DNA of 64,000 nt from Alphaproteobacteria bacterium UBA6149. Its GTDB lineage: Bacteria > Pseudomonadota > Alphaproteobacteria > Rickettsiales > UBA998. How positions within the stretch are numbered: position 1 is the stretch's first letter; every line of letters starts with the position of its first letter. The stretch is from NCBI GenBank assembly GCA_002423155.1, contig DIUV01000044.1, positions 62,278 through 126,277 on the forward strand, read 5' to 3'. Position numbers and translations under genes: made by a program. This document shows, piece by piece, positions 1,217 through 38,841 of this stretch. The notes below the pieces were generated by a model that searched no databases, was not told where the DNA came from, and saw only the letters and a program-made list of their open reading frames with translations.

Positions 1217-1301
1217 GAAAAACTCCTTTTATGGTAATGAAAACCCACTTTATATTCTAAAAGTTAAATAACTTTTAAGTTATATGCTATAAAATCAAAT
1301 T

Positions 1302-17823: not shown

Positions 17824-18011
17824 TTGTTAACATGAATACATAAAATAGAATACATAAAATAGTTGATTTTTATCAATTTAATCTTTATATATCGCTTGCT
17901 TTTTGTATATCTGTCTATTGGGTAGATATTTCTAACTGGGTTGATTTTTAACCCATTCTTTGCTGCATGTGCAGTTTATCCTGTTGGTATTAGCTACCGA
18001 GGAGTTTTTTT

Positions 18012-18431
18012 ATGTTGTATCTTATCGCAGGTGTTGTTCTTCTTGCATTCGCTGCTGTAGAATCTAATTGTTGCGCAAAAAAAGCCAAACAATTGGATGC
18101 AGAAGCTTTGTTGATGCAAGAGAAATTCTTGGAAAAAATTTCTGATGCAAAAGGGGTGAGCTTAGAGTTCTTGGAATTGGCGGGTATTCCCACTCCGAAT
18201 ACTATTATTCTACATGGTGGAGGACGGCGGTTGGAGTTTCCTTCTGATAAAACGGTTTCCTTAGTTGTTGATGCAAAAAATATGGAAATAGTTTGGTCGG
18301 ATGAAGATTCAGGCGTGGTTAATCGGGTGCATATAGAATTTCATGCCCGTTTGGTGCGACCATATTTCTTTGTATGCTTGCCTACTTTCATTGATAAGGA
18401 AGTACGCTGCATTCGTTCAGTAAGTTGCTAA
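18012..18431 (+). CDS. hypothetical membrane-anchored protein
   Basis: 139-aa ORF with an N-terminal hydrophobic helix and GAGG upstream of the ATG. No recognisable motif. Confidence 0.35.
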   Translation: MLYLIAGVVLLAFAAVESNCCAKKAKQLDAEALLMQEKFLEKISDAKGVSLEFLELAGIPTPNTIILHGGGRRLEFPSDKTVSLVVDAKNMEIVWSDEDSGVVNRVHIEFHARLVRPYFFVCLPTFIDKEVRCIRSVSC

Positions 18432-18461
18432 CAAGTTGATGGTGGTTGCGTGCAACCATCA

Positions 18462-19541
18462 TCATTCCATGCCGCCTAAAATTATGCGTGCATCACTGCA
18501 AAATCCCAAAGCTTTAAATAAAGTACCCATTTCCAGTGGAGACACTAAGCGGTTGATGCTATTAAGTATTTCCCCTGCTTGCTTGCCGCTGGCGGCTGCC
18601 TGTATCAGGTTGCGCGTGCGAATTTCGGCGCCGAGTCTGGTTAATAATATTCCTTGGGGAATAACATCATAATTTGCCACCTGATTTTCTTGTAATATTT
18701 CACGCAAGGCATCAAAATCTACGTGGGCGGTAATATCGGCTTCGCCAGCATCTTCTAATACAGGGTGAAACCCATGATTTTTTACGGCTTGCAGGCTGTT
18801 GCCGTGGCTGCCGCCCGTATAACCATAATCTATGACTATACCGGCACCATGATATTTTTTGATATGTGAGGCAATTTGCCCCATGATTACTCTTGCCGCG
18901 GGGCAAGTTTCGACGATTTCTTTGTCATCACTATAGGCTCCGCCTTTAACTAAGCGGATGCCCATTTGTTGAATAGAAAAAGCTAGTTTCTCAGGATTCT
19001 GTGGGTCTAAGCTAATCATTCGCTCACATAATCCTATATCAGTGCGGATAAATTGCCGAATAGGTAACGCGTCAAAAAACTCATTGGCAACCGCCAACAA
19101 AGGCAAAGCAGGTAGTTGATTTAAGTTGGTTCTCCACAGAATATTATTATGGAGATGTTGCAAGCTGGCTTGTTGTTTCTCACACAGGACAGGGCTGGTT
19201 TCTATCATGATTACCTGCAAAGCCGCGTGGAAACCGGTGATTTTGGCAGTGCTGCGTAAAATATCCGCCATTAGAGTTCCGCGTCCGGGACCTAGTTCCA
19301 ACAATATGCAAGGAGAGGGGCTGCCGAGTTGCAGCCAAACATCTGCCAAAAACGCACCCAATAATTCGCCAAAAATCTGGCTGATTTCGGGGGCGGTAAT
19401 AAAATCGCCTTTGCTTCCCAAAGGGTCTTTGCGCATATAATAGCCAAATTCGGGATGGGCAAGGCATAAATCCATATATTCAGCTACGGAAATCGAGCCC
19501 TGTTGGCGGATTTTGTCTTTGATAATTTGCTCTAAATTCAT
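18462..19541 (-). CDS. SAM-dependent methyltransferase, MidA/NDUFAF7 (DUF185) family
   Basis: FITAPEISQIFGELLG and LLELGPGRGTLM motifs; 359 aa. Confidence 0.75.
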   Translation of the reverse strand: MNLEQIIKDKIRQQGSISVAEYMDLCLAHPEFGYYMRKDPLGSKGDFITAPEISQIFGELLGAFLADVWLQLGSPSPCILLELGPGRGTLMADILRSTAKITGFHAALQVIMIETSPVLCEKQQASLQHLHNNILWRTNLNQLPALPLLAVANEFFDALPIRQFIRTDIGLCERMISLDPQNPEKLAFSIQQMGIRLVKGGAYSDDKEIVETCPAARVIMGQIASHIKKYHGAGIVIDYGYTGGSHGNSLQAVKNHGFHPVLEDAGEADITAHVDFDALREILQENQVANYDVIPQGILLTRLGAEIRTRNLIQAAASGKQAGEILNSINRLVSPLEMGTLFKALGFCSDARIILGGME

Positions 19542-20347
19542 AATTTATTTTTACGTAACAATAATACCATTCCTGCAATAATCATGGGCAGGCACAGCCA
19601 TTGCCCCATACTGAATCCGAGCGACAATAACCCTAATTGTGTATCTGGTTCGCGAGCATATTCGATGATAAAACGAAAAACTCCATAGCCAAGCAAGAAA
19701 ACCCCACTTAGTAAACCAGTTCTTTTTAACGCAGGAGTATAGATTAAAAGAATAAGTAGAATCAGGAATAAGGCTAAACCTTCGGCACCAGCTTCGTATA
19801 ATTGGCTAGGATGACGTGGAAGTTCCCCGCCGCGAGGAAAAACCATCCCCCAAGGATGAGTGGTTACACGCCCGAATAACTCACCATTGACGAAATTTGC
19901 CAGTCTGCCAAAGAACAAACCAATGGGAGCCACACAAGCAACCGCGTCCATTAATTGAATGAAATTTATTTTTTGTGCGCGGGCAAATAGCCAGAAAGAA
20001 ATGATAACTCCCAGCATTCCGCCATGAAAGGACATGCCGCCTTGCCAAATTTTTAAAGCTTCTAGCCAATGCTCGGCATAATAGCTGTTATTATAGAATA
20101 AAACATAACCCAGACGACCGCCCAGCATGATGCCCAGCACTGCCCAGCCAATCATATCCTCACGGATTTTAGCAGTGGTAATGGGAGCTTCCCTACGGTT
20201 TTCTATTTTACCCAAATACCACCAACCCAATAAAATTCCCCCAATATAAGCAAGCGCATACCAACGTATCGCCAGTGGACCTAAATGAATAGCTACTGGG
20301 TCAAAAGCAGGGAAGATTAAGGGGCTAAGAGCAAGAGCGGATAACAT
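19538..20347 (-). CDS. lgt: prolipoprotein diacylglyceryl transferase
   Basis: Polytopic, 269 aa, with the GGRLGY and HPSQLYE signature. Confidence 0.9.
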   Translation of the reverse strand: MLSALALSPLIFPAFDPVAIHLGPLAIRWYALAYIGGILLGWWYLGKIENRREAPITTAKIREDMIGWAVLGIMLGGRLGYVLFYNNSYYAEHWLEALKIWQGGMSFHGGMLGVIISFWLFARAQKINFIQLMDAVACVAPIGLFFGRLANFVNGELFGRVTTHPWGMVFPRGGELPRHPSQLYEAGAEGLALFLILLILLIYTPALKRTGLLSGVFLLGYGVFRFIIEYAREPDTQLGLLSLGFSMGQWLCLPMIIAGMVLLLRKNKL

Positions 20348-21342
20348 TATAAATAATGATCTGGCTGTAATAAATAATTTTGTACATAGTCAGCAATGCC
20401 CTCTTCTAGCGTAGAAAAAGGTATGTCATAACCTGCTGCAAGTAAACGATCCATCTTTGCTTCAGTAAAGTATTGATATTTATCCTTTATTGCTTCAGGC
20501 ATGTCAATATAATGAATGTTGGTTGGTTTGTTTACCGCTTTAAAAACTGCCTCGGCTAAGTCCTTGAAGCTACGTGCTTTACCGCTGCCTACGTTAAACA
20601 AGCCAGAAACTTGTGGATTTTCTAATAACCACAGCACTACATTGGCGCAATCTTTTACATAAACAAAATCACGCAACTGTCCGCCATCGGCATATTCTTT
20701 ATTATAAGATTTAAATAATTTTACCGCCAAACCTTCCCGCGCATGGGGGAAAATTTGTAAGGCAACGCTGCGTTGCTCCGCCTTATGATATTCATTGGGA
20801 CCATAGACATTAAAGAATTTCAAACCCACCGATTGGAGCGGCTGCAATTCGCCAAAAGATTTAGTGCGAGCTATATAATAATCAAATGCACATTGGCTCC
20901 AAGCTTGGGTGTGCAATGGTCTTAGTTTTTGTAAATATTCCAATGAATCATCATCATCAAAACCATGTTCTCCTGCGCCATAGGTAGAGGCAGAAGAAGC
21001 ATAGATAAAGCGTTTTTTGTTTTCAATACACCAGTTACGCAATACTTTTGAGAAAGACACGTTGTTTTCTAGCGCCAAGTTAGAATTAGTTTCGGTAGTG
21101 GAGGCAACGCCGCCCATGTGAATGATGGCTTCTAACGTATCGGAATGCATTTCCAACCAATAAAATATTTCTCCCGGAGTGATAAACTCATCAACCAGAT
21201 GTTTCACATTATTGCGCCATTTATCGCCATTATCATAAGTGTCGCAAATTGCTATGCGGTCATTAGGATATTTAATGGTTAAAGCCGCAGCAATGTTCGA
21301 GCCAATAAAACCAGCACCACCAGTTACTAAATAAGTTTTCAT
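20347..21342 (-). CDS. hldD: ADP-L-glycero-D-manno-heptose 6-epimerase-like NAD-dependent epimerase
   Basis: TGGAGFIGSN Rossmann motif, FNVYGPNE, RDFVYV.D, and C-terminal collinearity with E. coli HldD. ATG at 21342 has AGAGGA upstream and is preferred over 21366. Confidence 0.8.
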   Translation of the reverse strand: MKTYLVTGGAGFIGSNIAAALTIKYPNDRIAICDTYDNGDKWRNNVKHLVDEFITPGEIFYWLEMHSDTLEAIIHMGGVASTTETNSNLALENNVSFSKVLRNWCIENKKRFIYASSASTYGAGEHGFDDDDSLEYLQKLRPLHTQAWSQCAFDYYIARTKSFGELQPLQSVGLKFFNVYGPNEYHKAEQRSVALQIFPHAREGLAVKLFKSYNKEYADGGQLRDFVYVKDCANVVLWLLENPQVSGLFNVGSGKARSFKDLAEAVFKAVNKPTNIHYIDMPEAIKDKYQYFTEAKMDRLLAAGYDIPFSTLEEGIADYVQNYLLQPDHYL

Positions 21343-21436
21343 ATCGTTCCTCTTTATTAGTTTCATGATACTGTAGATGACAAGTAATGAATATTGAGTT
21401 AATGATGATAATATATTTTATATTGAGGTTAAGTAA

Positions 21437-21667
21437 ATGCAAAAAGACAACAAATTATTTGAGGATATGGCACGCATGGCATCTGGTGCAGCAGGAGTGG
21501 TTTTTGATGCTAAGCGCGAGATGGAAGCCATGATTGCTGCACAATTTGAAAATTTATTAGCCAAAGCAGGCTATGTAAAGCGTGATGAATTTGAAGTGGT
21601 GCGCAAGATGGCACAAACTGCTTGTGAAGAAGTAGCAGAACTAAAGAAAAGACTGGATGAGGCGTAA
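21437..21667 (+). CDS. ubiK: UbiK/YqiC-family accessory factor
   Basis: 76-aa coiled coil; the VKRDEFEVVRKM...ELKKRLDE pattern resembles YqiC. Confidence 0.65.
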   Translation: MQKDNKLFEDMARMASGAAGVVFDAKREMEAMIAAQFENLLAKAGYVKRDEFEVVRKMAQTACEEVAELKKRLDEA

Positions 21668-21734
21668 CAATCATCAATTAAAACTTCTGCATAATCCACA
21701 GGAAGCTTGTTTAAGCGGTTCTTATGCTTTTACA

Positions 21735-22385
21735 TCACATATTTTTAACAAACTCGGGCAGGCTAGTCTGACGTACTCTTTTGTTGCGCTCTGCTTTTAA
21801 TATATGCACAATTTGCGCTAAAGTGGCGTCAACATCCTGATTTATGACTACATAATCATATTCATTCCAATGCGCCATTTCATCTGCTGCTTTTTCCATG
21901 CGATGTTTTACTACTTCGTCGCTGTCTTGTGCACGTGAACGTAAGCGATTTTCTAGCTCACGCATGGAGGGAGGGAGAATAAATACGCTAACTAAATCAT
22001 CGCGGCAACATTGCGCTAGTTGACGTGTTCCCTGCCAATCAATATCAAACAAAACATCTTGACCAGAAGCCAAAGCCGCATTTACAAAATCAGCAGGAGT
22101 GCCATAACTATTGCCAAAAACTGTAGCAAATTCCAGCAACTCGCCGGCTTTTGCCATCTTATCAAAGGTCATTTGATCAACAAAACGATAATCCTCGCCG
22201 TTGACTTCCCCCAATCTTTGCGGACGGGTGGTTACTGAAACCGACATGGTGATGCCAGCTTCTTCTGCCAAAAGTCGCCGTGATAAAGTAGTTTTTCCTG
22301 CTCCTGATGGCGAGGATAAAACAAACATGAATCCGCGCCTGAATCCAGTTAAAGATGTGTCAGTTAACGATTTGATATCTGACAT
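21735..22385 (-). CDS. gmk: guanylate kinase
   Basis: P-loop SSPSGAGKTT, TTRP.R..E..G.DY.F. Confidence 0.92.
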   Translation of the reverse strand: MSDIKSLTDTSLTGFRRGFMFVLSSPSGAGKTTLSRRLLAEEAGITMSVSVTTRPQRLGEVNGEDYRFVDQMTFDKMAKAGELLEFATVFGNSYGTPADFVNAALASGQDVLFDIDWQGTRQLAQCCRDDLVSVFILPPSMRELENRLRSRAQDSDEVVKHRMEKAADEMAHWNEYDYVVINQDVDATLAQIVHILKAERNKRVRQTSLPEFVKNM

Positions 22386-22987
22386 TATTTATCCCCTATG
22401 AATTTACGGAGGGAAACTGCTAAATTTTCTGGGCTTATATCGTGAGCAAAATGTGCCACATATTCGCCGTTGCGATTCATCAAATAAATAAATGCTGAAT
22501 GATTAACCATGTAAGTTTTTGTTTTTACATCCGCATGTTCTGAGGCATAAATTTTATAAGCAGCTTGTGCTTTTTTTAAATCCTCTAATTCTCCCGTTAA
22601 AGCGACAGTAGAGGGATGAAAATTAGCAACATAATCTGCCAATGTTTTTACATCATCGCGCTTGGGATCCACAGTTATAAAAATAGGCACTATTTCTGTA
22701 CTGGCTTTACCCAACATATTAAGCGCCTGGGTAATATGCATCATCGCTGTAGGGCATTCATCTGGGCAGCTAGTGAATCCGAAAAACACCAACATCAATT
22801 TTCCACGAAAATCCGTAGATTTAACTATTTTGTTGTGCTGATTAGTTAAGGAAAAATCTCCCCCAATAGTAGTTTTTTCTACAGGACGCACCTCCGCCGA
22901 AACGGCTGATTGCATTTGCCAAGTCAATAACATATACGCAACCAAAGCTAAAGCAGGGATAGCAATAAAAAATATCTTGTTTTTCAT
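22385..22987 (-). CDS. SCO1/SenC-family copper chaperone
   Basis: N-terminal TM anchor and a thioredoxin fold with CPDECP (CxxxC) and a downstream His. Confidence 0.85.
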   Translation of the reverse strand: MKNKIFFIAIPALALVAYMLLTWQMQSAVSAEVRPVEKTTIGGDFSLTNQHNKIVKSTDFRGKLMLVFFGFTSCPDECPTAMMHITQALNMLGKASTEIVPIFITVDPKRDDVKTLADYVANFHPSTVALTGELEDLKKAQAAYKIYASEHADVKTKTYMVNHSAFIYLMNRNGEYVAHFAHDISPENLAVSLRKFIGDK

Positions 22988-23126
22988 AATTTCTCTAATC
23001 TGTTATAAAGCCATTTTAATAAAGTTACTTGCATAAACTGTAAAGTGTTTTCCGCTTCTCTTAAGGTTAAAATCATGCTATCAGGATGACAGTTATTTCT
23101 TAAACAACAAGTATTGGAGATTTAAT

Positions 23127-23564
23127 ATGAGAAAATTATTATTACTCGCCCCCTTGAGCATGTTCTTAGCTAGTGGAATTGCTCATGCTGAAGGAGATAT
23201 GGCTCCTATGGGCAAGCACCCACGTAAAATGGAGCAGACTTTATCGAAACTACCTGCTGACAAAGCCGCTGCTTTTAAAGCGGTTATGGAAAAGAACAAA
23301 GCTGCAAACGAAGCAACCATAGAACAAATCAAAAAATTAGAAGACAAAAAATTTGATATTCTAAGTGCAGAAAAATTTGACCAAGCAGCTTATGTTGCAA
23401 CTACAGGTGAAATTCATAAATTACGCCAAACCATCATGAGCTCGCATTGTGATGCTTTCGCTAATTTTGCGGCAGGTCTATCTCAGGCAGAGCGCAAAAC
23501 ATTGGCTGATTCTTTGAAAAAAGGACATGGCAAAATGCGTGAAATGCATGGAGATAATGATTAG
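23127..23564 (+). CDS. secreted helical protein, Spy/CpxP/ZraP-like
   Basis: Signal peptide (..GIAHA/EG) and a helical Lys/Ala-rich body. The family assignment is tentative. Confidence 0.4.
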   Translation: MRKLLLLAPLSMFLASGIAHAEGDMAPMGKHPRKMEQTLSKLPADKAAAFKAVMEKNKAANEATIEQIKKLEDKKFDILSAEKFDQAAYVATTGEIHKLRQTIMSSHCDAFANFAAGLSQAERKTLADSLKKGHGKMREMHGDND

Positions 23565-23586
23565 TCTTTCCAAGTGGAATGAGTAT

Positions 23587-23621
23587 AAAAAAGCCTCTCG
23601 TTATTAACGGGGGGCTTTTTT
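23587..23621 (+). terminator. intrinsic terminator hairpin; left copy of the 35-bp direct repeat
   Basis: AAAAAAGCCTCTCGTTATTAACGGGGGGCTTTTTT has a 10-bp stem (two G-U pairs on the plus-strand RNA) followed by a U run. An identical copy lies at 25492-25526. Confidence 0.7.
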
Positions 23622-23652
23622 TAATTTTAATAATTCACGGAATTACCGAAAG

Positions 23653-23829
23653 CTACTTTGTAGTTTCGGATTTATTCTGATTTTCGTAATTATTCTTGTT
23701 GTTTAAATTGCTAAGTTCTGACTTAATCTCTTGAAGAGGGCTGTTATAATACATCCAATCCGGAGCTTTTTTAAAGCTCTCATTAGCCTCGGATAATTGT
23801 AACGAAATCCAATTTTTTCTTAGTGACAT
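23653..23829 (-). CDS. small hypothetical protein (58 aa) coupled to the deaminase gene
   Basis: AAGGAG lies 7 nt upstream of the ATG at 23829, which is 24 nt after the deaminase stop. The track start at 23847 is less likely. Confidence 0.35.
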   Translation of the reverse strand: MSLRKNWISLQLSEANESFKKAPDWMYYNSPLQEIKSELSNLNNKNNYENQNKSETTK

Positions 23830-23853
23830 AAATCTTCTCCTTATCATTGTATT

Positions 23854-25401
23854 TCAATCTATAATTTTAAGCCCGTATTTGTCCATTAAATTATCAAACT
23901 CTATTAAATGAGCTTCTTCCATATGAATGTGAAATGGCAAAAAAACTGTAAATTTAAATTTTGCCTTTTGTGGAGACCATTCAATAGCATCTCCAACAGT
24001 GTTTTTTCTTTTATCTATCATCTTAAATAGTTGGCTAGCTTTATTTGGAGAAATTCCCATAAAAGATTTGAAGTTTACTTTACCTTCTACATCTGTCGAA
24101 TCTATGCATACTGAGTCATCATACAGATCCTTTGTTTTGCTTTTAGGGTACGGCTCAATGAAATATAATTTACTTATTCCAGACGAAATTATATGCCTTG
24201 CACAAATATGGCATGGGAAAGTTGTGCAGAAAAGAGTTTTTCCTGAAAGTGATAGCCCTCTTTTTGCGGCATCTGTTATAGCTGCCATTTCTGCGTGCAC
24301 GATTCTACCAAATTCTAAAATATTTGATAGAGTGCTGTCCTTTAGAATATTTTTGTGCTCTCCCTCAGTACACTTGTGAATAAGACTATCGCTATCTTTT
24401 ACTTTATTTTTATCAAAGAAATCGGCCTTAAAAAGAGCGTTTATAACTTCAGTTAACATTTCATTTTTAGCTTTGGCACTACTATCAAATCCCACTTTAT
24501 GGTCCCTATAGTCTTTTGAATCTGGCCAATATTGTCCTCCGCCGGCTTTAGGTACCTCGTTGCATCCTAAAGATATTACGCAACCATCATCGTCTAAAAT
24601 AACAGCACCAACTTGTCTTGATAAATCAGCAGACCTAAGAGCAGAAACACTAGCTAGAAATTGACCATATTCTTCTTTTGTCGGGGTATGAAATGGATGC
24701 CCAAAAAGTATTTCTATAAATCTTTTTATATTATATTTTAGAGATTCCTTATCACTTTCATCAACAAATAAATCAGCAAGATGAAAGGCAGCACCAACAT
24801 TCTGTCCTGTCGCCCCAGCCTCTTCGTTGTAATCTCTTTCTATTAATGCTTCTGCATGTGAGTAGTATTTTGTATGTGCTGATTTTCCATAACTCTTAGC
24901 TATTTTTCTTGCTAAGGTTTCTTTCCTTTTCTCTCTAGGTGAATATACTGATATTAAAAAAAATAAGTCTCCATATATTTTTCTAAGAAGATTTACTTCT
25001 TCTGTATTTTTTAGTGAGTTAAAAATATAGGCTACTTTGCTTCCTGCCTTGCGCGAATCACCAGTAAAATAGCGGCGATTTTCACGAACGGTTGTCAGTG
25101 CGGCTAATGCCAAAGCATCACCTCTTTTCATCTTGTTTTTATAAGTTGTACCTGCCGTCATATAAGAATCTATTCTTTTATCTTGGAAGGTCTCTTCTAA
25201 AGTAACACCTAGTCCATCAATATGCGCCAATATTTCACTTAGCCTAATGCTTTGAACTGTGTAATCCAATTTATTAAGTTCCGAGGAAAGGCGTGCTATT
25301 GTAATATCTAAATCAGTGCCCACAGGACCAATTAATCCAAAAAATATTTCTGGCGTTGGATTTGATTCTAATAAATTTGCATCACTCTTTTTATTAGTCA
25401 T
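23854..25401 (-). CDS. AvcD-like / defensive dCTP-deaminase-like protein (N-terminal kinase-like fold fused to a zinc cytidine/dCMP deaminase)
   Basis: The C-terminal half has deaminase motifs SRQVGAVILDDDGCVISLGCNE, HAEMAAI and PCHICARHIISSGI. The N-terminal ~250 aa has a degenerate P-loop-like GLIGPVGT. The ATG at 25401 (AGAGGA upstream) is preferred over the TTG at 25440. Confidence 0.75.
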   Translation of the reverse strand: MTNKKSDANLLESNPTPEIFFGLIGPVGTDLDITIARLSSELNKLDYTVQSIRLSEILAHIDGLGVTLEETFQDKRIDSYMTAGTTYKNKMKRGDALALAALTTVRENRRYFTGDSRKAGSKVAYIFNSLKNTEEVNLLRKIYGDLFFLISVYSPREKRKETLARKIAKSYGKSAHTKYYSHAEALIERDYNEEAGATGQNVGAAFHLADLFVDESDKESLKYNIKRFIEILFGHPFHTPTKEEYGQFLASVSALRSADLSRQVGAVILDDDGCVISLGCNEVPKAGGGQYWPDSKDYRDHKVGFDSSAKAKNEMLTEVINALFKADFFDKNKVKDSDSLIHKCTEGEHKNILKDSTLSNILEFGRIVHAEMAAITDAAKRGLSLSGKTLFCTTFPCHICARHIISSGISKLYFIEPYPKSKTKDLYDDSVCIDSTDVEGKVNFKSFMGISPNKASQLFKMIDKRKNTVGDAIEWSPQKAKFKFTVFLPFHIHMEEAHLIEFDNLMDKYGLKIID

Positions 25402-25491
25402 TATTTCCTCTTTTTTGCCATTATATTGTTGTTTTTTCAAAATATTTAACTATGATATTAGTATTAGTTATATAACAATAAACTTAATCTG

Positions 25492-25526
25492 AAAAAAGCC
25501 TCTCGTTATTAACGGGGGGCTTTTTT
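25492..25526. terminator. right copy of the 35-bp direct repeat / terminator hairpin
   Basis: Identical to 23587-23621. It overlaps the stop codon of the 497-aa gene (25525-25527). Confidence 0.7.
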
Positions 25527-27018
25527 AATGCTGATGCCCGCCCATAGCGCATTGAATTTTATCAACATTTCGTTCTGGTGGCTTTATTTGTTGCCCAAAG
25601 CCAATATATTGCTCCACCCCGTTTTGCTTAATCTGCAAATAAAACTGGGTGGCGCCGCTATTATCGGGCTCTATATGAAATTGTAAAACCGGTCCACCTT
25701 TTGCGTCGGCAGAGTTTGGTTCTACTCCCACAGGATGCGTGTGAATAATAGATTTTCCATCCGCACTAAAGCCAACCAAATGCGCAAAAGCGCCCATGAT
25801 GGGCTCTAAATTAGTAACCGGATTTCCGTCTTTGTCACTAATGGTAAAATCTACCATAGATGCCTGATTTTGCTGCAATGGTTGAGCTAAATTCCAGTGC
25901 ACATGCAGACCATTTTTTTCTGCCTCATTATTAGACCGTATAAAAGGCACAATATTGCGAGAAATCGGAGAATTTATGGTGGTTAGTAATTTATGGTTCG
26001 TGTTATCAGATTTAAGCGTAAAATCGCTCCAGACATTGTAACTATTGCTGGTTTTGGGCATGAAGGAAAATTCATATATTCCAGGGCGTTCGGTTGGTTC
26101 TGGGTGAATATGGTGGTAATCTTGCAAAGCGGGATCTACCACAAATAAATGTAATTTTTTGGTATGCACAATTGCTAGCTCATCTGGAGTTAAGGGAGTG
26201 CCATTTTTATGAGTTAATTGCAAATATGCTTTGCAATTACTGCCAGCAATGGGAGGAGTTGCTGTGGTTATCGCAGCATTTATTGAGCCATCGGAATATT
26301 TTTGTTCTGGATAATTTTCTGGAGTCAATTTTTGTACAAAAGAATTTTCTTTTTCATCTGCTGGGCTTTGCCATAAATGCGCCCCCAACAAGGTAGAAAT
26401 AAACGGCATGCCGCAGGTGAAAATATGTGGAATTATTGAGGCTATCCCTAAGGCGGCTGCGCCCCCAGCATGATTATGCATGGCTAGCCCTAAAGTTTTG
26501 CTCATTACTCCTGCCATGTTTTCTGCCAAGGCAGTGTCTTTGGTCAAGGCAGCAAAAAAGACTAAGCCATTGGCAATACCCGTTAAAACGGTGGGTAAGG
26601 AAATAAGTGCCGTAGCCGCCAATGCGGTATAACGGATAATTTTTCCCCAATTTAACCCATGAGTACCATTATCGTGTTTTTCAATAAAATTGCCGAGTAA
26701 TATTCCACCAATTCCCACTGTACCAATCGTGGCAGCGCTAAAGCTGCTGCTGGTTAGTAATTTTTCACCAATCAAGGGAATGCCCGAAATAATTTTATTT
26801 ACCCCATCCGCCAGACCATGGCTATCTATCATACTGGCCTGCATGGCGGTTTTTGCTGCTTCTTCCCCCACACCTAACGAGGGCAAAATATGTGGAGCCA
26901 GCACAATAGCGGCACCCGTCAAAGCAATCCCCGTCATGATGGTACTTAAAGAAATACCCGAGGAAGATTGCAGGTGATGATGTACGTGTGGATCAGCAAT
27001 ATTAGATTCTGCATTCAT
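25525..27018 (-). CDS. polytopic membrane protein with His-rich termini and a C-terminal beta-rich, possibly metal-binding, domain
   Basis: 497 aa. N-terminal HVHHH, about 6 TM/Gly-rich segments, repeated ..YHHIHPEP.. and ..IHTHP.. motifs, and C-terminal CAMGGHQH. Confidence 0.5.
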   Translation of the reverse strand: MNAESNIADPHVHHHLQSSSGISLSTIMTGIALTGAAIVLAPHILPSLGVGEEAAKTAMQASMIDSHGLADGVNKIISGIPLIGEKLLTSSSFSAATIGTVGIGGILLGNFIEKHDNGTHGLNWGKIIRYTALAATALISLPTVLTGIANGLVFFAALTKDTALAENMAGVMSKTLGLAMHNHAGGAAALGIASIIPHIFTCGMPFISTLLGAHLWQSPADEKENSFVQKLTPENYPEQKYSDGSINAAITTATPPIAGSNCKAYLQLTHKNGTPLTPDELAIVHTKKLHLFVVDPALQDYHHIHPEPTERPGIYEFSFMPKTSNSYNVWSDFTLKSDNTNHKLLTTINSPISRNIVPFIRSNNEAEKNGLHVHWNLAQPLQQNQASMVDFTISDKDGNPVTNLEPIMGAFAHLVGFSADGKSIIHTHPVGVEPNSADAKGGPVLQFHIEPDNSGATQFYLQIKQNGVEQYIGFGQQIKPPERNVDKIQCAMGGHQH

Positions 27019-27053
27019 AATTAATGTATATTAAGCACTGCGGATGAAAAAGT

Positions 27054-28208
27054 CTAATATTCTTTATCCCAAACATCAAAAACTCGGCGGTGTTCCTGCA
27101 AAGCAAAGCGGTCAGTCATGCCTGCGATGAAATCGGCGACCAAACGGGCTTTGGCGAATTTTTCTGCATTTTCCGCTTGTTCCTTCCACTCGGTGGGCAA
27201 ACAATCTGGTTCGTTGATGAAAAAAGTGAATAATTCGCGCACCACTCTACGCGCTTTGCTGGTCATGCGGTTTACTTTGTAGTGGCGGTACATGCGCTCT
27301 TTTAAAAAAGCTTTTAGTTCGCGGTTATACGCCACGACATTATCGGAAAAATGCACTAATTGCTTGCCCACATTGCGCACATCTTCGACCGATTTTATAT
27401 TATATTCTGCAATATTTTGCTGAGTCTGGGTTAGCACATCTGCAACCAGCAAATTAATTATCCGCCGCACTACTTCATGTACTCTGCGCCGCGCATCTAA
27501 ATTGGGATAGGCGTTATCCACCGCATGCAAAACTTCTCCCACTAAGGGCAAATCTGCTAATTCATCCAAGCCAAAAAATCCTGCGCGAATACCATCTTCA
27601 ACATCATGATTATTATAAGCAATATCATCAGCAATCGCGGCAACTTGCGCTTCTAATCCGGCAAAAGTTTTGATTTCTAAATCATGTTTTTCTATATATT
27701 GAGCAATTGCAAACGGAACCTCCCCAAGAATTGGTCCGTTATGTTTAGCGATGCCCTCAAGCGTTTCCCAAGTTAGATTTAAGCCATCAAATTGGGCATA
27801 ACGATGCTCTAAACTGGTGAGAATCCGCAAAGCTTGGGCGTTATGATCAAACCCACCGAGTTCCTGCATCACCTCGCGCAGACCATCTTCGCCAGCATGT
27901 CCGAACGGGGTGTGCCCTAAATCATGCGCTAATGCGAGGGCTTCGCCCAAATCTTCATCCAGCTGCAAATAACGACACATCGAACGAGTTAATTGACCAA
28001 CTTCCAAACTATGAGTCAAACGAGTGCGATAATGATCGCCTTCGTGATTAATAAATACTTGGGTTTTATATTCTAAACGCCGAAAAGCCGCCGAGTGAAT
28101 AATCCGATCGCGATCGCGCTGGAAATCGCTGCGCGTAGAGCAGGATTTTTCTGCATATAGACGCCCGCGAGTTTGGCTGGCCTGAGTGGCGTATGGAGCT
28201 AGGGTCAT
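27054..28208 (-). CDS. dgt: dGTP triphosphohydrolase-like HD-domain protein
   Basis: FQRDRDRIIHSAAFRRLEYKTQVF, RLTHSLEV and HDLGHTPFGH motifs; 384 aa. Confidence 0.85.
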   Translation of the reverse strand: MTLAPYATQASQTRGRLYAEKSCSTRSDFQRDRDRIIHSAAFRRLEYKTQVFINHEGDHYRTRLTHSLEVGQLTRSMCRYLQLDEDLGEALALAHDLGHTPFGHAGEDGLREVMQELGGFDHNAQALRILTSLEHRYAQFDGLNLTWETLEGIAKHNGPILGEVPFAIAQYIEKHDLEIKTFAGLEAQVAAIADDIAYNNHDVEDGIRAGFFGLDELADLPLVGEVLHAVDNAYPNLDARRRVHEVVRRIINLLVADVLTQTQQNIAEYNIKSVEDVRNVGKQLVHFSDNVVAYNRELKAFLKERMYRHYKVNRMTSKARRVVRELFTFFINEPDCLPTEWKEQAENAEKFAKARLVADFIAGMTDRFALQEHRRVFDVWDKEY

Positions 28209-28495
28209 ACAGGCTTTGCTTCGTTTAAAATTTTACTTCTAGTAGCATGATAAAGACCTGATTCAAATACTATATCTATTCTTCGAGAAAAAAGTTTCTC
28301 CAAATCATTTTGGAAATCAACAAAGGCTAAAGGGTCGCGAGCATCTTCTACGTTAACTAAGAAATCTATATCACTATCAGCGGTTTCCTCACCTCTAACC
28401 ACTGAACCAAACACACGGACATCTCTCAAGCCTTTTTGAGTGGCAAGGGTAATAATGGCATCCCGATGGCGGTGTATTTTATCTAATAGTTTCAT
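28205..28495 (-). CDS. MNT-type minimal nucleotidyltransferase (antitoxin-like)
   Basis: GSVVRGEETADSDIDFLV signature; 96 aa. Its stop overlaps the dgt start (ATGA at 28208-28205). Confidence 0.75.
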   Translation of the reverse strand: MKLLDKIHRHRDAIITLATQKGLRDVRVFGSVVRGEETADSDIDFLVNVEDARDPLAFVDFQNDLEKLFSRRIDIVFESGLYHATRSKILNEAKPV

Positions 28496-28524
28496 ATAAA
28501 TCCTTCATCTCAAGGGATATTATA

Positions 28525-28586
28525 TAAAAAAACTCTCCCGTTTGCACCCCAAAAAATATTTTTGATTAATGGTCAAACGAGAGAGT
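28525..28586 (-). terminator. possible carD terminator (13-bp stem, large loop, T7 run)
   Basis: Minus strand reads AACTCTCTCGTTTG...CAAACGGGAGAGTTTTTTT directly after the carD stop. TATAAT and GAAGGA for the next gene follow. Confidence 0.35.
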
Positions 28587-28607
28587 TACAACAAGGTCTA
28601 ATATATT

Positions 28608-29159
28608 TTAAGCAGCAGCTTTCTCTTTTTCGTTCTGGCTACGCAAAACTTTTAGCAAACGATCAGAAGCTTCTTTAGAATCAATGCTTTCTGCCGCAGC
28701 AACTTCGCCAGCTAAACGACCAAGTGCAGATTCATAAATCATCCGTTCGCTGTAAGAACGCTCCGACTGATCAACATTTTTGTGCAAGTCACGCACAACT
28801 TCGGCAATAGAAAGAATGTTGCCTGAATTGATTTTTGCTTCATATTCCTGTGCACGACGGCTCCACATGCCGCGAGAAGTTTTTGCTTTTCCTTTCAAAG
28901 TTTTGATAGCTTTTTGGATTTGCACTTCGTCGCTGATATGGCGCAAGCCAGCAGCGGCGGCGCGGTGCATTGGCACGCGCAAAGTCATTTTTTCTTTTTC
29001 AAAGAAAATAACGAACAAAGTTAATTCAATTTCACCGATTTTCTGAGTTTCCACCCCTGTAATTTTGCCCACACCATGAGTAGGATATACAACAAAATCA
29101 TTCACGTTAAATACATCACGCACCGCGTTTTCATTGCACACAGTATTCTCGATTGTCAT
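28608..29159 (-). CDS. carD: CarD/CdnL-family transcriptional regulator
   Basis: VVYPTHGVGKITGVE...MTLRVPM in the N-terminal RNAP-interacting domain; 183 aa. Confidence 0.9.
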   Translation of the reverse strand: MTIENTVCNENAVRDVFNVNDFVVYPTHGVGKITGVETQKIGEIELTLFVIFFEKEKMTLRVPMHRAAAAGLRHISDEVQIQKAIKTLKGKAKTSRGMWSRRAQEYEAKINSGNILSIAEVVRDLHKNVDQSERSYSERMIYESALGRLAGEVAAAESIDSKEASDRLLKVLRSQNEKEKAAA

Positions 29160-29429
29160 ATTATTCCCCTTTTAAAAATTATCTCCGTCTCCAATCCAAT
29201 AAAGATTGGCGGAATTTAGCGTTGACTGGCACGCTCACCATTTTTTAAAAAACACACAGAAAACATCAGAGCAATACCCACGAGCAGCTCTGTGTTGACG
29301 TGGCAAATATGACACAAAATTGAGCAAAAAGAAACCATAAAATACAATTTTTCTAAAGTTTTATTCAAACTGGCGGACATTTGCTTTTAACCCTTTATAG
29401 AATTAGAAGTTAAACTCCTTTTATTTCTC

Positions 29430-29462
29430 GCCGCACGGGCGGCGGGCTTGCAGTTGCAAGCC
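29430..29462 (+). repeat. REP-like double hairpin (family F), copy 1
   Basis: GCCGCACGGGCGGC followed by GGCTTGCAGTTGCAAGCC. Related copies lie at 51845-51877 (+) and 33670-33703 (inverted). Confidence 0.7.
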
Positions 29463-29539
29463 TGTGTATAGTGCTTCAATTTTAGTGAAATTTAAAAGGG
29501 AGAAGCACTATAAACTGTAAAAACCGAAGGATTTCCGCT

Positions 29540-30538
29540 ATGCAGCACGATTATAAAAACCTTACCGCCACTTACGATGTTTTGGGGATTGGCAGTGCAA
29601 TTGTTGATATTTTAGCCTTAGTGGAGGATGAATTTCTGATTCGTGAGGCGCTCGACAAAGGTGGCATGTGCCTGATTGATGCAAAACGGGCGAATGAATT
29701 ATATGAAAGCCTTGGTCAATGCACCGAATGTTCGGGTGGTTCGGTTGCCAATAGCTTGGCGGCAATTGCCTCATTAGGCGGTAAATCGGCTTTTATTGGT
29801 CGGGTGCATGAAGATGCGCTGGGGAAAATTTTTACCCATGATATGCGCTCAGTAGGGGTGGATTATACCACCGCACCTGCCAAACACGGCAAACCCACTG
29901 CGCGTTGTATGGTGTGTGTAACTCCTGATGCACAGCGAACCATGGCAACTTATATTGGTGCCTCGTGTGAACTTAACACTACGGATATTGACGCACAAAA
30001 AATTGCTGATTCATCTATTATCTATGTAGAGGCTTATTTATGGGACTTGCCCGAAGCCAAAGACGCCATCCGCCAAGCGTTTGCCGAGGCAAAAAAAGCT
30101 GGTCGCAAAATAGCCTTTACCTTGTCTGACTCCTGGTGCGTAGATCGCCACCGCGCTGATTTCCTGGATTTTATTGCCGAATGCGTGGATGTATTATTCG
30201 CCAATGAGCATGAAATTTGCGCTTTATTTGAAACCGATGATTTAGAGCTAGCCTTAGAGAAAATTACTCCATTAGTTGATGTTACCGCGGTTACTTTAGG
30301 GGAAAGAGGTAGTATTGTTTTGCAAGACCAACAACGAAATGACATTCCCGCACAAAATATCAGCAAATTAATCGACAGTACTGGCGCTGGTGATTTATTC
30401 GCCGCAGGCTTTTTATATGGCATCACCCAAGGTTGGAGCCTATATGAAAGTGCGGCATTAGGAAATTCCTGTGCAGCGGAGATTATTCAACAATTGGGGG
30501 CGCGTCCACAACGCCCATTGAATAAATTGGTCGCTTAA
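29540..30538 (+). CDS. PfkB-family kinase (adenosine kinase-like)
   Basis: VLGIGSAIVDIL N-terminus, C-terminal TGAGDLFAAGF motif; 332 aa. Confidence 0.7.
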   Translation: MQHDYKNLTATYDVLGIGSAIVDILALVEDEFLIREALDKGGMCLIDAKRANELYESLGQCTECSGGSVANSLAAIASLGGKSAFIGRVHEDALGKIFTHDMRSVGVDYTTAPAKHGKPTARCMVCVTPDAQRTMATYIGASCELNTTDIDAQKIADSSIIYVEAYLWDLPEAKDAIRQAFAEAKKAGRKIAFTLSDSWCVDRHRADFLDFIAECVDVLFANEHEICALFETDDLELALEKITPLVDVTAVTLGERGSIVLQDQQRNDIPAQNISKLIDSTGAGDLFAAGFLYGITQGWSLYESAALGNSCAAEIIQQLGARPQRPLNKLVA

Positions 30539-30544
30539 AGCGCC

Positions 30545-31747
30545 ATGCAAAAAAAGCAACTCTTGCAAATATTTCTCTTAGCATTTGCTTGTGGTTTACC
30601 GCGTCTATTAGTTGCCTCCACTTTATCTGCCCGTTTGGTGGATGCCGGGATTCAGCGCGCAGCAATTGGTTTGTTTGCTTATGTTGCTTTGCCTTATGCC
30701 TTTCATTTTGTTTGGGCGCCTTTAATGGATAATCTATCTGCACCTTTTGGTCTGGCAAGACTAGGTCGCAGAAGAGGCTGGATATTATTGACGCAAATAT
30801 TACTAGTTCCTGCCATTATATTATTAGGCATCTTACAAAACCCTATTTATTTAGCCCTTGCTGCCGTACTGGTCGCCTTTTTATCTTCCAGTCAAGACGT
30901 GGTGTCGGATGCATTTCGTGCAGAATATATTGCTAAAGAAAATCATGGAGAAGCCGCATCCTTAACAGTTTTTGGCTATCGCGTGGGTATGCTTGCATCA
31001 GGAGCTGGGGCATTGTTTCTTGCACAATATTTCAGTTGGCAATTTGCTTATTTTTGTATGGCAGCTTTGTTACCCCTAGGAATGCTAACCGTTTGGTGGG
31101 TGCATGAGCCAGAATATAAAACCGCGCCCATTATCGCCACCAGCTTAAAAGACTGGCTCCGACAAGCATTTTTAACTCCCTTCAAACAATTTGCTGGACA
31201 ACATAAAAATTGGCTGCACTTACTAGCCTTCATCATGTGCTTTCGCCTTGCAGAAGGGTTTGTCGGCTTCATGTCCACCCCGTTTTTTTTGGATATTGGT
31301 TTCAACAAAGAACAAATCGCCACCATCGCCAAACTTTATGGCTTTGGCGCAACCTTAGCAGGTACTTTCTTAGGCGGAATGTGCGTAAAATGGTTAGGCA
31401 TGAAAAACGCACTTTTAGTTAGCTCCCTCACGCAAATACTCGGCGTCGGAACTTATATATTCGTCGCTTCTTTAGGTGCCAACCAAATGGCGCTTGCCGT
31501 TGCCATCACCGCCGACAATCTCGCCGCAGGCATGGCAGGTTCCATCGGGGTTGCCTTTCTTATGGGGCTAACTAATCCCGCGCATACTGCAACTCAATAT
31601 GCACTGCTGGGCGCTTTAGCAACGTTTGCTTCCACTAGCTTAGCAGGTGGCGCTGGCTGGGTATCGCAAATTTTTGGCTGGCAGGCAATGTTTACGTTGG
31701 CAATGTTTTTGGGGCTGCCCGCGATTTGGCTGTGGCGGAAATTGTGA
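30545..31747 (+). CDS. ampG: AmpG-family muropeptide MFS permease
   Basis: 12-TM MFS protein with the FVWAPLMD motif; adjacent to ampD. Confidence 0.8.
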   Translation: MQKKQLLQIFLLAFACGLPRLLVASTLSARLVDAGIQRAAIGLFAYVALPYAFHFVWAPLMDNLSAPFGLARLGRRRGWILLTQILLVPAIILLGILQNPIYLALAAVLVAFLSSSQDVVSDAFRAEYIAKENHGEAASLTVFGYRVGMLASGAGALFLAQYFSWQFAYFCMAALLPLGMLTVWWVHEPEYKTAPIIATSLKDWLRQAFLTPFKQFAGQHKNWLHLLAFIMCFRLAEGFVGFMSTPFFLDIGFNKEQIATIAKLYGFGATLAGTFLGGMCVKWLGMKNALLVSSLTQILGVGTYIFVASLGANQMALAVAITADNLAAGMAGSIGVAFLMGLTNPAHTATQYALLGALATFASTSLAGGAGWVSQIFGWQAMFTLAMFLGLPAIWLWRKL

Positions 31748-31757
31748 GGGTTGATTC

Positions 31758-38713: not shown

Positions 38714-38813
38714 CTATCGTCATGCCGCCGTAGGGCGGTATCCATGCCTATCTGCTAGCTGCACAGCCAGTTGTTTGGCATGGATACCGCCCTGCGGCGG
38801 TATGACAATAGAG
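38714..38813. repeat. palindromic element family B, copy B1 (GTCATGCCGCCGTAGGGCGGTATCCATGCC arms)
   Basis: Inverted arms at 38714-38748 / 38779-38813, inside the ribD-ribE spacer. Further copies lie at 48798-48898 and 62116-62214. Confidence 0.85.
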
Positions 38814-38841
38814 AGTTTTTATGATTAAATCGCGTTACTTT

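Follow-up and report, generated by a model that had tools for sequence, protein, structure and literature searches.

A low-GC islet with an anti-phage dCTP deaminase gene and a putative small partner gene lies between two copies of a terminator hairpin

Gene content and boundaries of the islet

Analysis of the window, the whole stretch of 64,000 nucleotides, located an islet of low GC content between two convergent genes (Table 1). The islet contained only two ORFs, and on both sides it was bounded by the same 35-bp sequence. Across the 64 kb, 1870-bp windows had a mean GC content of 0.429 (sd 0.029), and the islet had the lowest value of all; a value as low was found in 0 of 5839 non-overlapping windows, and the minimum was positioned at 23621, exactly at the repeat boundary. 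The GC profile thus bore out the claim of an earlier note, made from the letters of this DNA, that the 1870 bp are more AT-rich than their surroundings. The contrast is moderate, and defence genes are often AT-rich even if they are long resident.

Table 1. Positions in the window of the islet, its genes and the sequences that flank it
Feature	Position	Strand	Evidence
Left flank, 145-aa Metal_resist-family protein, convergent with the islet	23127..23564	+	PF13801, E 1.6e-11
Left hairpin copy with U-run	23587..23621	.	Exact repeat, folding energy, terminator scan match
Islet, low GC, one two-gene operon	23622..25491 (1870 bp)	-	GC 0.334, no terminal inverted repeats
Conserved 58-aa helical partner ORF (putative)	23653..23829	-	AAGGAG site, relatives, codon changes, hhalign, AlphaFold
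Anti-phage dCTP deaminase (predicted), 515 aa	23854..25401	-	PADLOC, NF041025, PF00383, AlphaFold/Foldseek, invariant residues
Upstream region with TATAAT box and GAGGAA ribosome-binding site	25402..25491 (90 nt)	-	Read from sequence
Right hairpin copy	25492..25526	.	Exact repeat, folding; overlaps the stop codon of the 497-aa gene (25525-25527)
Right flank, 497-aa membrane protein (unknown family)	25525..27018	-	ORF call; SCO1/SenC neighbour in relative

The TATAAT box, read from the sequence, lies about 20 nt ahead of the deaminase ATG; the sigma-70 consensus scan called no promoter in 25402-25491. The Rfam search of the islet returned only sub-threshold matches to the terminator hairpin, and no replication gene was found in the islet.

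The islet junctions are real. The same junctions were present at 100% identity in two independent JGI assemblies and in the NCBI and ENA records, the longest contig being 140 kb. The k=31 Logan contigs ended exactly 30 nt inside each hairpin copy, as a 35-bp repeat predicts.

The deaminase gene

The large ORF was assigned by profile searches to the anti-phage dCTP deaminase family (Tal et al., 2022, bioRxiv 10.1101/2021.04.26.441389; NCBIfam NF041025; PADLOC dCTPase). It matched the PADLOC dCTPase model with an E-value of 1.1e-153 (511 bits) and the NF041025 equivalog with 446.4 bits (cut-off 400), residues 31-479 covering positions 1-437 of the 437 in the profile, while PF00383 matched the C-terminal domain with 64 bits. 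More than 6000 homologues were found, many of them named anti-phage dCTP deaminase. The motifs HAEMAAI, PCHICARH, SRQVGAVILDDDG and GLIGPVGT were all present, at alignment positions that are invariant or nearly so across the family, which agrees with the deaminase signature and P-loop-like motif named in the earlier note. Among 24 sequences, H382, A383, E384, C410 and C413 were invariant, and the catalytic HAE and PCxxC were intact.

The AlphaFold model (pLDDT 85.4) combined a kinase-like N-terminal fold with a dCMP-deaminase fold in the C-terminal part. The best Foldseek match of the C-terminal domain was 7fh4, the PBCV-1 dCMP/dCTP deaminase; the N-terminal domain matched the adenylate-kinase-related structures 3h0k and 3lw7 with a target-normalised TM-score (TMt) of 0.69-0.74. 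A search of the PDB by sequence found no full-length structure of the family. Judged by sequence and predicted fold, the large ORF clearly belongs to the anti-phage dCTP deaminase (AvcD-type) family and therefore encodes an enzyme of a known kind. The HMM searches and the structure prediction, both of which the earlier note had proposed, thus agreed with its AvcD-like label for the protein family; the label does not extend to an AvcID-type RNA-antitoxin module, since the upstream region measures only 50-90 nt.

Two starts are possible for the gene. A longer ORF of 528 aa (23854-25440, minus strand) opens with TTG. The ATG at 25401 is the likelier start because it has the GAGGAA ribosome-binding site, because NCBI calls the 515-aa form and because the model of the 528-aa form is disordered over its first 22 residues. 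The 515-aa form (P0221) is recorded in NCBI, JGI and ENA, the 528-aa form only as a JGI protein (P0001). A 582-aa Logan "fusion" that reads TGA as Trp is most likely a gene call under genetic code 4.

The small downstream ORF

The small ORF lies in frame with the deaminase, past its TGA stop and 8 codons, and an AAGGAG site stands 7 nt 5' of its ATG; a 64-aa reading from 23847 is less likely. AlphaFold predicted helices at residues 3-21 and 31-55. The deaminases 71-73% identical to that of the islet have downstream ORFs 50-53% identical to the small ORF. Comparison with one relative (locus L013) showed 11 synonymous and 11 non-synonymous codon changes, and the differences were concentrated at third codon positions (17/38, compared with 19/76 at positions 1 and 2). 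Five short relatives of the small ORF were found among 1.84 billion representatives.

The wider group of such ORFs encodes proteins of about 50-67 aa with the core motif W-[IL]-x2-Q-[IL]-x9-[WA]-P-x-W. Profile-profile alignment with hhalign linked the subfamily of the window to this WPxW group with an E-value of 7e-5 and a probability of 62%. In a leave-one-group-out test, the held-out downstream ORF ranked 1-3 among 9974 six-frame pieces in 11 of 13 groups; the window's own subfamily gave E 0.35 and rank 3. The tie between that subfamily and the wider group, read from these sequence profiles, is only moderate. The profile also detected two loci outside its training set, L056 and the Vibrio plasmid locus L066; in the RefSeq record of the Vibrio plasmid the small ORF is left unannotated. 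A PHROG of unknown function matched 5 of 7 members.

A small ORF was found at the deaminase stop codon in 22 of 57 sampled loci, about a third, a count that is partly circular because most of the positive loci had served to train the full HMM. About two thirds of the sampled loci lack it, and it is therefore not essential to the family. A GGAG ribosome-binding site stood at the right distance ahead of the ORF in 13 of 16 lineages, and the starts often overlap the deaminase stop, which suggests translational coupling. The motif is kept at the amino-acid level in loci that, where checked, share no nucleotide similarity beyond the coding parts. At one locus (L074) the ORF ends after 32 codons. 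Pfam, NCBIfam and PADLOC models gave no match to the small ORF, scans of the metagenome and viral collections with its back-translation gave none, and a word-index search returned nothing, short proteins being probably outside the index. No published description of a 58-residue partner gene was found. The earlier note had mentioned "one small ORF" in passing; the ORF does exist, and on the sequence evidence it is a real, conserved, translated partner gene of the deaminase family.

The repeat and the terminator hairpin

The 35-mer AAAAAAGCCTCTCGTTATTAACGGGGGGCTTTTTT occurs exactly twice in the window, with 0 mismatches between the copies (35/35), as the earlier note had reported. Among 100 shuffles no such repeat arose, and no third copy was found when up to 3 mismatches were allowed. 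Folding showed that both copies form a hairpin followed by a U-run, in agreement with the same note. On the plus strand the folding energies were -20.9 kcal/mol for the left copy and -21.4 kcal/mol for the right copy (z -5.2 and -4.8). On the minus strand the hairpin was weaker, at about -13 kcal/mol (left copy -12.8), because two G-U pairs turn into C-A mismatches. The hairpin is therefore an asymmetric two-way terminator.

The left copy is the terminator of the 145-aa gene, strong on the plus strand, and likely the weaker terminator of the islet operon on the minus strand. The right copy terminates the 497-aa gene on the minus strand and shields the islet from read-through. Both copies have plausible terminator roles. 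A duplication of the hairpin would leave every one of the three transcription units, namely the 145-aa gene, the cassette operon and the 497-aa gene, with a terminator copy at its end.

Beyond the left copy the sequence continues with a seventh T before AAT; beyond the right copy AAT comes directly. If one slipped T is allowed, the repeat becomes 38 nt long and takes in the stop codon of the 497-aa gene. The repeat, so read, may extend into that stop codon, which fits a host origin of the hairpin. The hairpin core was found neither in the 65 other loci that were fetched nor in IMG/VR, and it had 0 matches in metagenome_contigs, a collection that does not hold the source contig itself.

Cassette copies elsewhere and the search for an empty site

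Within the window, the neighbours of the cassette are housekeeping genes and not a defence island. The neighbouring dgt gene was considered as a defence dGTPase and rejected, as the housekeeping equivalog accepts it and the anti-phage model does not. Elsewhere, a CRISPR-Cas9/AbiE defence island carries a cassette copy with 87% nucleotide identity, which is evidence in favour of a recent horizontal transfer. Deaminases with 73% and 71% identity adjoin MutH/methylase/ubiquitin-like genes and a type I restriction-modification system. With a foreign composition, and with its closest relatives in the defence islands of genomes that are not related, the islet was shown indirectly to have a foreign origin. 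The hairpin accompanies no other cassette copy, including the 87% identical one; flanking repeats were not found at other isolated or island-borne cassettes, and no nucleotide homology between cassette copies was seen beyond the coding parts. A cassette from IMG/VR had no match in an E. coli genome.

All public contigs of the source organism carried the 100% identical filled allele or were broken at the repeat, and when the 145-aa and 497-aa proteins were looked up by exact sequence, the same strain came back in five samples. A scan of GTDB genomes with the 497-aa protein gave only non-syntenic matches of 39-41% identity. Its relatives were at most 47% identical, and two long contigs among them were not syntenic. 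A SCO1-SenC gene overlaps the 497-aa homologue at one locus (L073) and sits just upstream of it at another (L001), so the islet interrupts a related gene group. No empty site with a single hairpin was present in public data. Even the closest relatives known for the 497-aa protein share only 47% identity with it and no synteny, and the insertion into the terminator hairpin described in the earlier note is therefore kept here as a putative event; because no empty site was found, the insertion as such and the direction of the duplication are likewise inferred.

Arrival of the islet and alternative explanations

JGI gene calls and Pfam searches over 17127-32018 found no integrase or recombinase in the islet or in the roughly 6 kb to its left and right, and no transposase was found in the islet, as the earlier note had stated for both enzyme types. 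Terminal inverted repeats were absent (the best inverted match of the islet ends was 8, against a shuffle mean of 9.3). A DDE-type transposon was rejected on the lack of such repeats and of a transposase. An integron cassette was also rejected: the hairpin loop GTTATTAAC fits neither RYYYAAC nor GTTRRRY, and no integrase or array lies nearby. The 35-bp duplication exceeds known target-site duplications by far, and no att-like conservation that would explain it was found.

The preferred reading, to which we give a probability of about 0.72, is that an acquired two-gene anti-phage cassette was placed at a shared terminator and that the host hairpin was duplicated on its entry. The cassette would be a self-contained, horizontally acquired unit at the terminator common to two convergent housekeeping genes. 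The 58-aa helical protein would belong to the cassette and not to the host, and the hairpin would be host sequence, duplicated when the cassette entered. By analogy with tested family members, the deaminase would be held in check as long as the cell is healthy; once a phage stops host transcription, it would turn dCTP and dCMP into dUTP and dUMP, and their loss would starve phage DNA synthesis.

Perfect direct repeats of tens of bases around a foreign segment are the usual mark of site-specific integration. The 35 bp could accordingly be an attachment-site core, with a small element that brought its own hairpin copy integrated by a tyrosine or serine recombinase acting in trans or since lost. 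The reality of the repeat and the absence of transposon-like ends speak for such an event; this origin is nevertheless unlikely, because neither the islet nor 17127-32018 holds an integrase, the hairpin is a gene-specific terminator in a lineage without near relatives, it is missing at every other cassette copy and from IMG/VR, and the possible reach of the repeat into the 497-aa stop codon fits a host origin. It is very unlikely that the cassette is an old resident whose second hairpin arose by local duplication or convergence, each transcription unit needing a terminator. No empty site is known and each copy could plausibly serve as a terminator, as that history would have it; the 35/35 identity of the copies speaks against old age or convergence, and the extreme composition of the islet and the patchy distribution of the cassette, in unrelated contexts and with the 87% identical copy elsewhere, also stand against it. 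An assembly artefact, in which a free 1.9-kb circle or DNA of another organism sharing the 35 bp was threaded between the two genes, is highly improbable. A circle sharing the repeat with the chromosome would give an identical assembly graph, the data are all metagenomic and the k=31 contigs break at the repeat; against this, the independent assemblies and records agree on the junctions, foreign DNA would still need the host-specific 35-mer, and the islet has no replication gene.

Alternatives were also weighed for the two genes. That the small ORF has no role as a protein partner, being conserved as an RNA element (e.g., a downstream AvcI-like antitoxin) or present by chance, is distinctly unlikely: the enrichment of differences at third codon positions, the well-placed GGAG sites, the constancy of the motif in amino acids without nucleotide similarity outside the coding parts in the cases checked, the frequent overlap with the deaminase stop and the PHROG match all point to a protein, even though an RNA is the regulator known for the family (PMC10511110), the ORF is short and missing from two thirds of the sampled loci, and at L074 it runs for only 32 codons before a stop. 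A housekeeping dCMP deaminase of pyrimidine metabolism, with no defence role, is scarcely credible for the large gene. Its C-terminal domain does match PF00383 and solved dCMP deaminases; however, housekeeping enzymes have 140-190 aa, whereas this protein carries a 250-aa kinase-like N-terminal domain and matches the defence equivalog over the full length, the ComEB model gives only 45.8 bits (cut-off 219), and the distribution of the deaminase is sparse and tied to defence islands.

Comparison with known systems

The deaminase resembles the dCTP deaminases of Tal et al. in its kinase-like N-terminal and zinc deaminase C-terminal domains, its size (about 500 aa, with HAE and PCxxC), its score above the equivalog cut-off and the homologues in defence islands; at 515-528 aa it is also longer than the 350 aa used to delimit that family. 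That family is catalogued as single-gene, whereas a small ORF follows the deaminase here and in about a third of the sampled loci, and the islet copy stands alone among housekeeping genes, outside any defence island.

The AvcID type III toxin-antitoxin system of Vibrio (Hsueh et al., 2022; PMC10511110) has a toxin from the same protein family, and a similar trigger would be expected, the loss of a labile inhibitor after phage transcription shut-off. The same operon encodes, just ahead of the toxin, the AvcI antitoxin, an RNA of about 171-300 nt (PMC10511110). The islet differs in having 50-90 nt upstream, no structured-RNA match and, instead, a putative downstream protein-coding partner. Because 50-90 nt is less than the AvcI minimum of 171 nt, the locus cannot be an AvcID-type RNA-antitoxin module.

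In the islet, the gene of a potentially toxic enzyme comes first, and that of a small protein with a low-complexity tail, apparently coupled to it in translation, comes second. This is also the order of those type II toxin-antitoxin modules that begin with the toxin gene, as in higBA and hicAB. The small ORF differs from their antitoxins in that it has no DNA-binding domain, its antitoxin role is putative only and it is missing in two thirds of the loci.

The cis-mobilisable elements (CIMEs) of streptococci are att-flanked and carry no recombination genes. The islet is likewise a foreign segment that lacks its own integrase and lies between perfect direct repeats of tens of bases; unlike in CIMEs, its repeat is the whole intrinsic-terminator hairpin of a lineage-specific gene pair and not the end of a tRNA or conserved gene, and no known related element carries its hairpin site. 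Defence cassettes of integrons (bioRxiv 10.1101/2024.07.02.601686) are similarly compact, at 1-2 kb, and lie at hairpin-forming sites, whereas the islet lacks an attC core (RYYYAAC / GTTRRRY), intI, attI and a cassette array, has its own upstream region and has the hairpin duplicated on both sides.

Significance

The deaminase alone is one more member of a well-known defence family. The interest of the locus lies in how toxic deaminases stay silent and then switch on, which is understood only for the AvcI RNA of Vibrio. We infer that the small protein has a regulatory effect on the deaminase and is most likely either a labile inhibitor or a trigger adaptor; the AvcI RNA, which has this task in Vibrio, does not fit into the locus. 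Conserved but overlooked by annotation, such a micro-protein is encoded at the end of about one in three of the family genes sampled, which makes it a concrete candidate, easy to test, for the missing regulator. It is a tentative proposal, rather doubtful at present, that many "single-gene" dCTP deaminase systems are really two-gene systems in which a coupled helical protein would do the job of AvcI as a labile inhibitor or phage sensor. Published constructs may have included the small ORF, cut it off or disrupted it by C-terminal tagging.

The hairpin duplication is a clean single example. As a second and weaker case, the exact duplication of a whole hairpin may mark an undescribed route by which defence cassettes are placed at terminators able to form cruciforms, with no recombinase dedicated to the task. 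If it recurs, it could show how recombinase-less defence cassettes enter the terminators of convergent genes and leave the neighbours undisturbed.

Deaminase gene of the islet

The large ORF of the 1870-bp islet matched the PADLOC dCTPase model (E 1.1e-153), Pfam dCMP_cyt_deam_1 and the NCBIfam equivalog NF041025 "anti-phage dCTP deaminase" (446.4 bits, cut-off 400), and had more than 6000 homologues below E 1e-10, many carrying that NCBI name. In an alignment of 24 sequences, H382, A383, E384, C410 and C413 were invariant, and GLIGPVG lay on conserved columns. In the AlphaFold model (pLDDT 85.4, pTM 0.82; residues 1-22 disordered), the C-terminal half resembled dCMP/dCTP deaminases, the best being 7fh4, the PBCV-1 bifunctional enzyme, and the N-terminal half resembled the adenylate-kinase-related P-loop proteins 3h0k and 3lw7; a sequence search of the PDB found no full-length family member. 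Translation probably begins at the ATG at 25401 (515 aa), which is served by a GAGGAA ribosome-binding site; the 515-aa form is also the one called by NCBI.

Tal et al. define the system by an N-terminal kinase, a C-terminal deaminase and a length above 350 aa (bioRxiv 10.1101/2021.04.26.441389), and the large ORF had all three. As for defence islands, such a location was found for relatives only: a 73% identical homologue neighboured a DNA methylase, MutH, a ubiquitin-like module and an HTH/M78 pair, and a 71% identical one a type I restriction-modification system. The islet encodes a bona fide member of the anti-phage dCTP deaminase family with its catalytic residues intact. The family is already known, and the earlier note was correct in assigning the protein to it as a kinase-fold/deaminase fusion with a C-terminal zinc deaminase signature and a P-loop-like N-terminal motif; the HMM searches and the predicted fold supported the assignment.

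Features of the window and of related loci
Feature	Coordinates	Strand	Remarks
Left and right hairpin copies	23587-23621; 25492-25526		
Small ORF	23653-23829	-	58 aa; AAGGAG site 7 nt before ATG
Large ORF (deaminase)	23854-25440	-	
dgt	27054-28208	-	PADLOC dGTPase model, 352 bits
96-aa nucleotidyltransferase	28205-28495	-	overlaps dgt start
Dispersed repeats	38718-38829, 48803-48912, 62120-62231		about 110-135 nt, 78-90% identical
Dispersed repeats	2823-2943 with 54871-54991; 7478-7612 with 54666-54800		about 110-135 nt, 78-90% identical
GGT/GGC-rich imperfect repeat run	41340-41995		
L074 cassette copy	1083-2248		JGI 3300045502, contig Ga0494960_00010372; 86.8% nt identity to window 24899-23716
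L019 cassette	4001-5761		alphaproteobacterial MAG GCA_028281785.1
L066 small partner ORF	3987-4166		Vibrio nigripulchritudo plasmid NZ_AP027047.1; MSPNSTLVAHLSKSKSRVESWPAWKQE..., overlaps annotated deaminase stop codon
L068, L069 60-aa ORFs	705-887; 922-1104		annotated

Hairpin repeat and junctions

The 35-mer AAAAAAGCCTCTCGTTATTAACGGGGGGCTTTTTT occurred in two perfect copies (0 mismatches), where chance would give none; allowing up to 3 mismatches revealed no third copy in the window. As plus-strand RNA, each copy formed a 16-pair stem (-20.9 and -21.4 kcal/mol, z about -5); the minus-strand RNA of either copy folded less stably (about -13 kcal/mol), since C-A mismatches replace two G-U pairs. 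The hairpin is thus a good terminator for the plus-strand 145-aa gene, whose stop lies 22 nt before the left copy, and a poorer one for minus-strand transcripts. The 497-aa gene ends in a stop codon (25525-25527) that overlaps the right copy. Since (T)AAT follows each copy, the repeat extends to 38 nt including this stop codon, allowing one slipped T. The GC content between the copies was 0.334 (window mean 0.429, sd 0.029), the lowest of all 1870-bp windows, with the minimum at position 23621; none of 5839 non-overlapping windows was as low. The perfect repeat, its hairpin nature and the AT-richness of the islet had all been described from the sequence, and they were borne out, the last by sliding-window GC.

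The window belongs to an 85-kb JGI metagenome contig, and the flanking 497-aa protein was also found in NCBI and ENA records on contigs of up to 140 kb. In a second JGI assembly, one contig (21413-25267) spanned the left junction and another (27722-25316) the right, both at 100% identity. In three Logan runs (k=31 assembly), contigs ended at 23616 and 25497; both ends lie 30 nt inside a copy, exactly where a 35-bp repeat must break an assembly at this k. Because the JGI, NCBI/ENA and Logan contigs agree, the filled locus was treated as physically real. All samples contained one and the same strain and thus offered no variation between populations.

Probable insertion and transfer of the cassette

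No recombinase was found in the islet or in 17127-32018, in line with the earlier remark that no integrase or transposase is present. The islet had no terminal inverted repeats, and neither attC cores nor a second such insert were found in the window. The search for an empty site returned none; the nearest relatives of the 497-aa protein were 47% identical and not syntenic. Insertion of the islet at the hairpin is plausible, and could have occurred through staggered cuts at the foot of an extruded cruciform that were then filled in, through Campbell-type integration of a circle bearing the same 35 bp, or with the help of a recombinase in trans.

A copy of the cassette from another metagenome (L074) lay in a defence island with AAA_13, AbiEii and DUF6088, type II CRISPR Cas9-Cas1-Cas2 and Fic genes. 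It was 5'-truncated, with a 10-N scaffold gap inside the gene, and its small ORF ended after 32 codons, leaving only the conserved core. Similarity to the window stopped within the coding parts, and L074 lacked the hairpin. The hairpin core was absent from all 65 other fetched loci and from IMG/VR, and no flanking repeats were found at other isolated cassettes, such as L019. In one relative the 497-aa protein came immediately after SCO1/SenC, and in another it lay a short way downstream of an SCO-like match; from these neighbours, the islet looks to lie inside a copper-related group of SCO, Metal_resist and 497-aa protein genes. On the sum of these observations, we favour a host-derived hairpin duplicated at insertion over a site carried by the element.

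At L019, the deaminase and small ORF, the latter not called in the record, stood among housekeeping genes, between tsaD and a creatininase-family gene (then gpsA).

Neighbouring features

Read from PADLOC only, dgt would be a second nucleotide-depletion defence paired with the deaminase. This was ruled out, as dgt passed the housekeeping dGTP triphosphohydrolase equivalog NF002328 (543 bits vs 467) and failed the anti-phage dGTPase model NF041026 (249 vs 400). The nucleotidyltransferase resembled MntA-type antitoxins (below cut-off) and matched PADLOC candidate PDC-S09 (E 3.5e-30); no HEPN partner was called beside it in the JGI annotation. The dispersed repeat families contained an internal palindrome (CGTCATGCCGCCGTAGGGCGGTATCCATGCC ... 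GGCGGTATGACAA) and resemble miniature mobile or REP-like elements within this genome. The GGT/GGC-rich run probably encodes a glycine-rich repeat protein.

Small ORF downstream of the deaminase

The small ORF was in frame with the deaminase gene, its ATG following the TGA stop and 8 codons. The two closest deaminases were followed by ORFs of 55 and 67 aa, 50-53% identical to the 58-aa ORF, with the N-terminal 40 residues strongly conserved. Of the first 38 codons, compared with those at locus L013, 16 were unchanged, 11 differed synonymously and 11 non-synonymously, and third positions were enriched for differences; nucleotide similarity between cassettes was limited to the two coding regions. 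A HMMER scan of 1.84 billion representatives found five short relatives. Pfam, NCBIfam and PADLOC held no model for the ORF, and phrog_38465 (PHROG, function unknown) weakly matched 5 of 7 members. AlphaFold predicted helices at 3-21 and 31-55, with confidence dropping in the polar tail.

The two genes were likewise in frame, one stop codon apart, at L056. On a 1930-bp Logan SRR contig (the islet with 30 nt of each repeat), they were merged in a 582-aa call (P0220) that takes the in-frame TGA for Trp, most likely because genetic code 4 was applied to this short, AT-rich contig.

The family was sampled with 44 IMG/VR loci and several other deaminase-encoding loci. Many had a 50-74-aa ORF starting at or overlapping the deaminase stop codon, with the common core [WFL][IL]xxQ[IL]...[VIL]xxWPxW[KM]. 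In leave-one-group-out profiles, 11 of 13 groups had their held-out downstream ORF at rank 1-3 out of 9974 six-frame pieces (E 3.5e-5 to 0.35), and two loci outside the training set were detected, L056 (E 0.002) and the V. nigripulchritudo plasmid NZ_AP027047 (L066; E 1.7e-7). GGAG preceded the ORF at the right distance in 13 of 16 lineages. Of 57 loci, 22 carried the ORF; with redundant loci counted once, the figure was roughly 15 of about 49. The deaminases beside it were 33-73% identical to that of the window. The subfamily of the window aligned with the wider WPxW group in hhalign (E 7.3e-5, probability 62%), and its profile matched L019 (E 0.011); together with the identical position, this gives moderate, not strong, support for placing it in that group.

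Other helical 55-58-aa ORFs (MPDHLEWLENQARLARQQIEQQ..., MQDSEILRRIEREKEKFEKLETWKKE...) overlapped the deaminase stop codon in L028 and L071 (Azospirillum plasmid), L030 and L040, and failed the profile. These could belong to the group as divergent members, which would raise the share of loci with a downstream partner above one third. The 4.6-kb ColE1-type E. coli and Klebsiella plasmids L068 and L069 had no downstream small ORF; their 60-aa ORF, ending ...EDSKSLKW, lay directly upstream of the deaminase gene and could represent another kind of small partner. Tiny non-mobilisable plasmids with the deaminase as main cargo numbered 25 Klebsiella and 13 E. coli records.

Regulation and proposed working

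The Vibrio deaminase is inhibited by AvcI RNA, which is encoded directly upstream in the same operon, requires at least about 171 nt and is observed at about 300 nt (PMC10511110; PMC12409362). Here, only 50-90 nt separated the right hairpin from the deaminase start codon, and an Rfam search of the islet returned nothing but sub-threshold look-alikes of the terminator. The upstream regions of the two closest homologues were also short (about 90-140 nt). The locus is not an AvcID module. In L066, 1.25 kb without annotation upstream of the deaminase could contain an AvcI-like RNA, which may coexist there with the small partner ORF.

The two genes of the cassette form an operon that has a short upstream region of its own and lies between two terminator copies. 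Judging from the sequence, the duplication leaves a terminator behind each of three units (145-aa gene, cassette, 497-aa gene), and the right copy also protects the cassette from read-through. By analogy with tested relatives, the deaminase would stay inactive until host transcription is shut off by an infecting phage, and would then turn dCTP and dCMP into dUTP and dUMP, blocking phage DNA synthesis. The small protein may be a labile regulator in lineages without AvcI.

The earlier note had listed one small ORF in the islet; the ORF is present, and its conservation, which had gone unnoticed, points to a partner of the deaminase. The searched literature, a limited collection in which earlier notice is possible, described the system as one gene or a gene with an RNA and did not mention the small ORF, which had no annotation in the RefSeq record of L066. 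The most interesting result is a conserved downstream micro-protein in this defence family, unannotated where RefSeq was checked.
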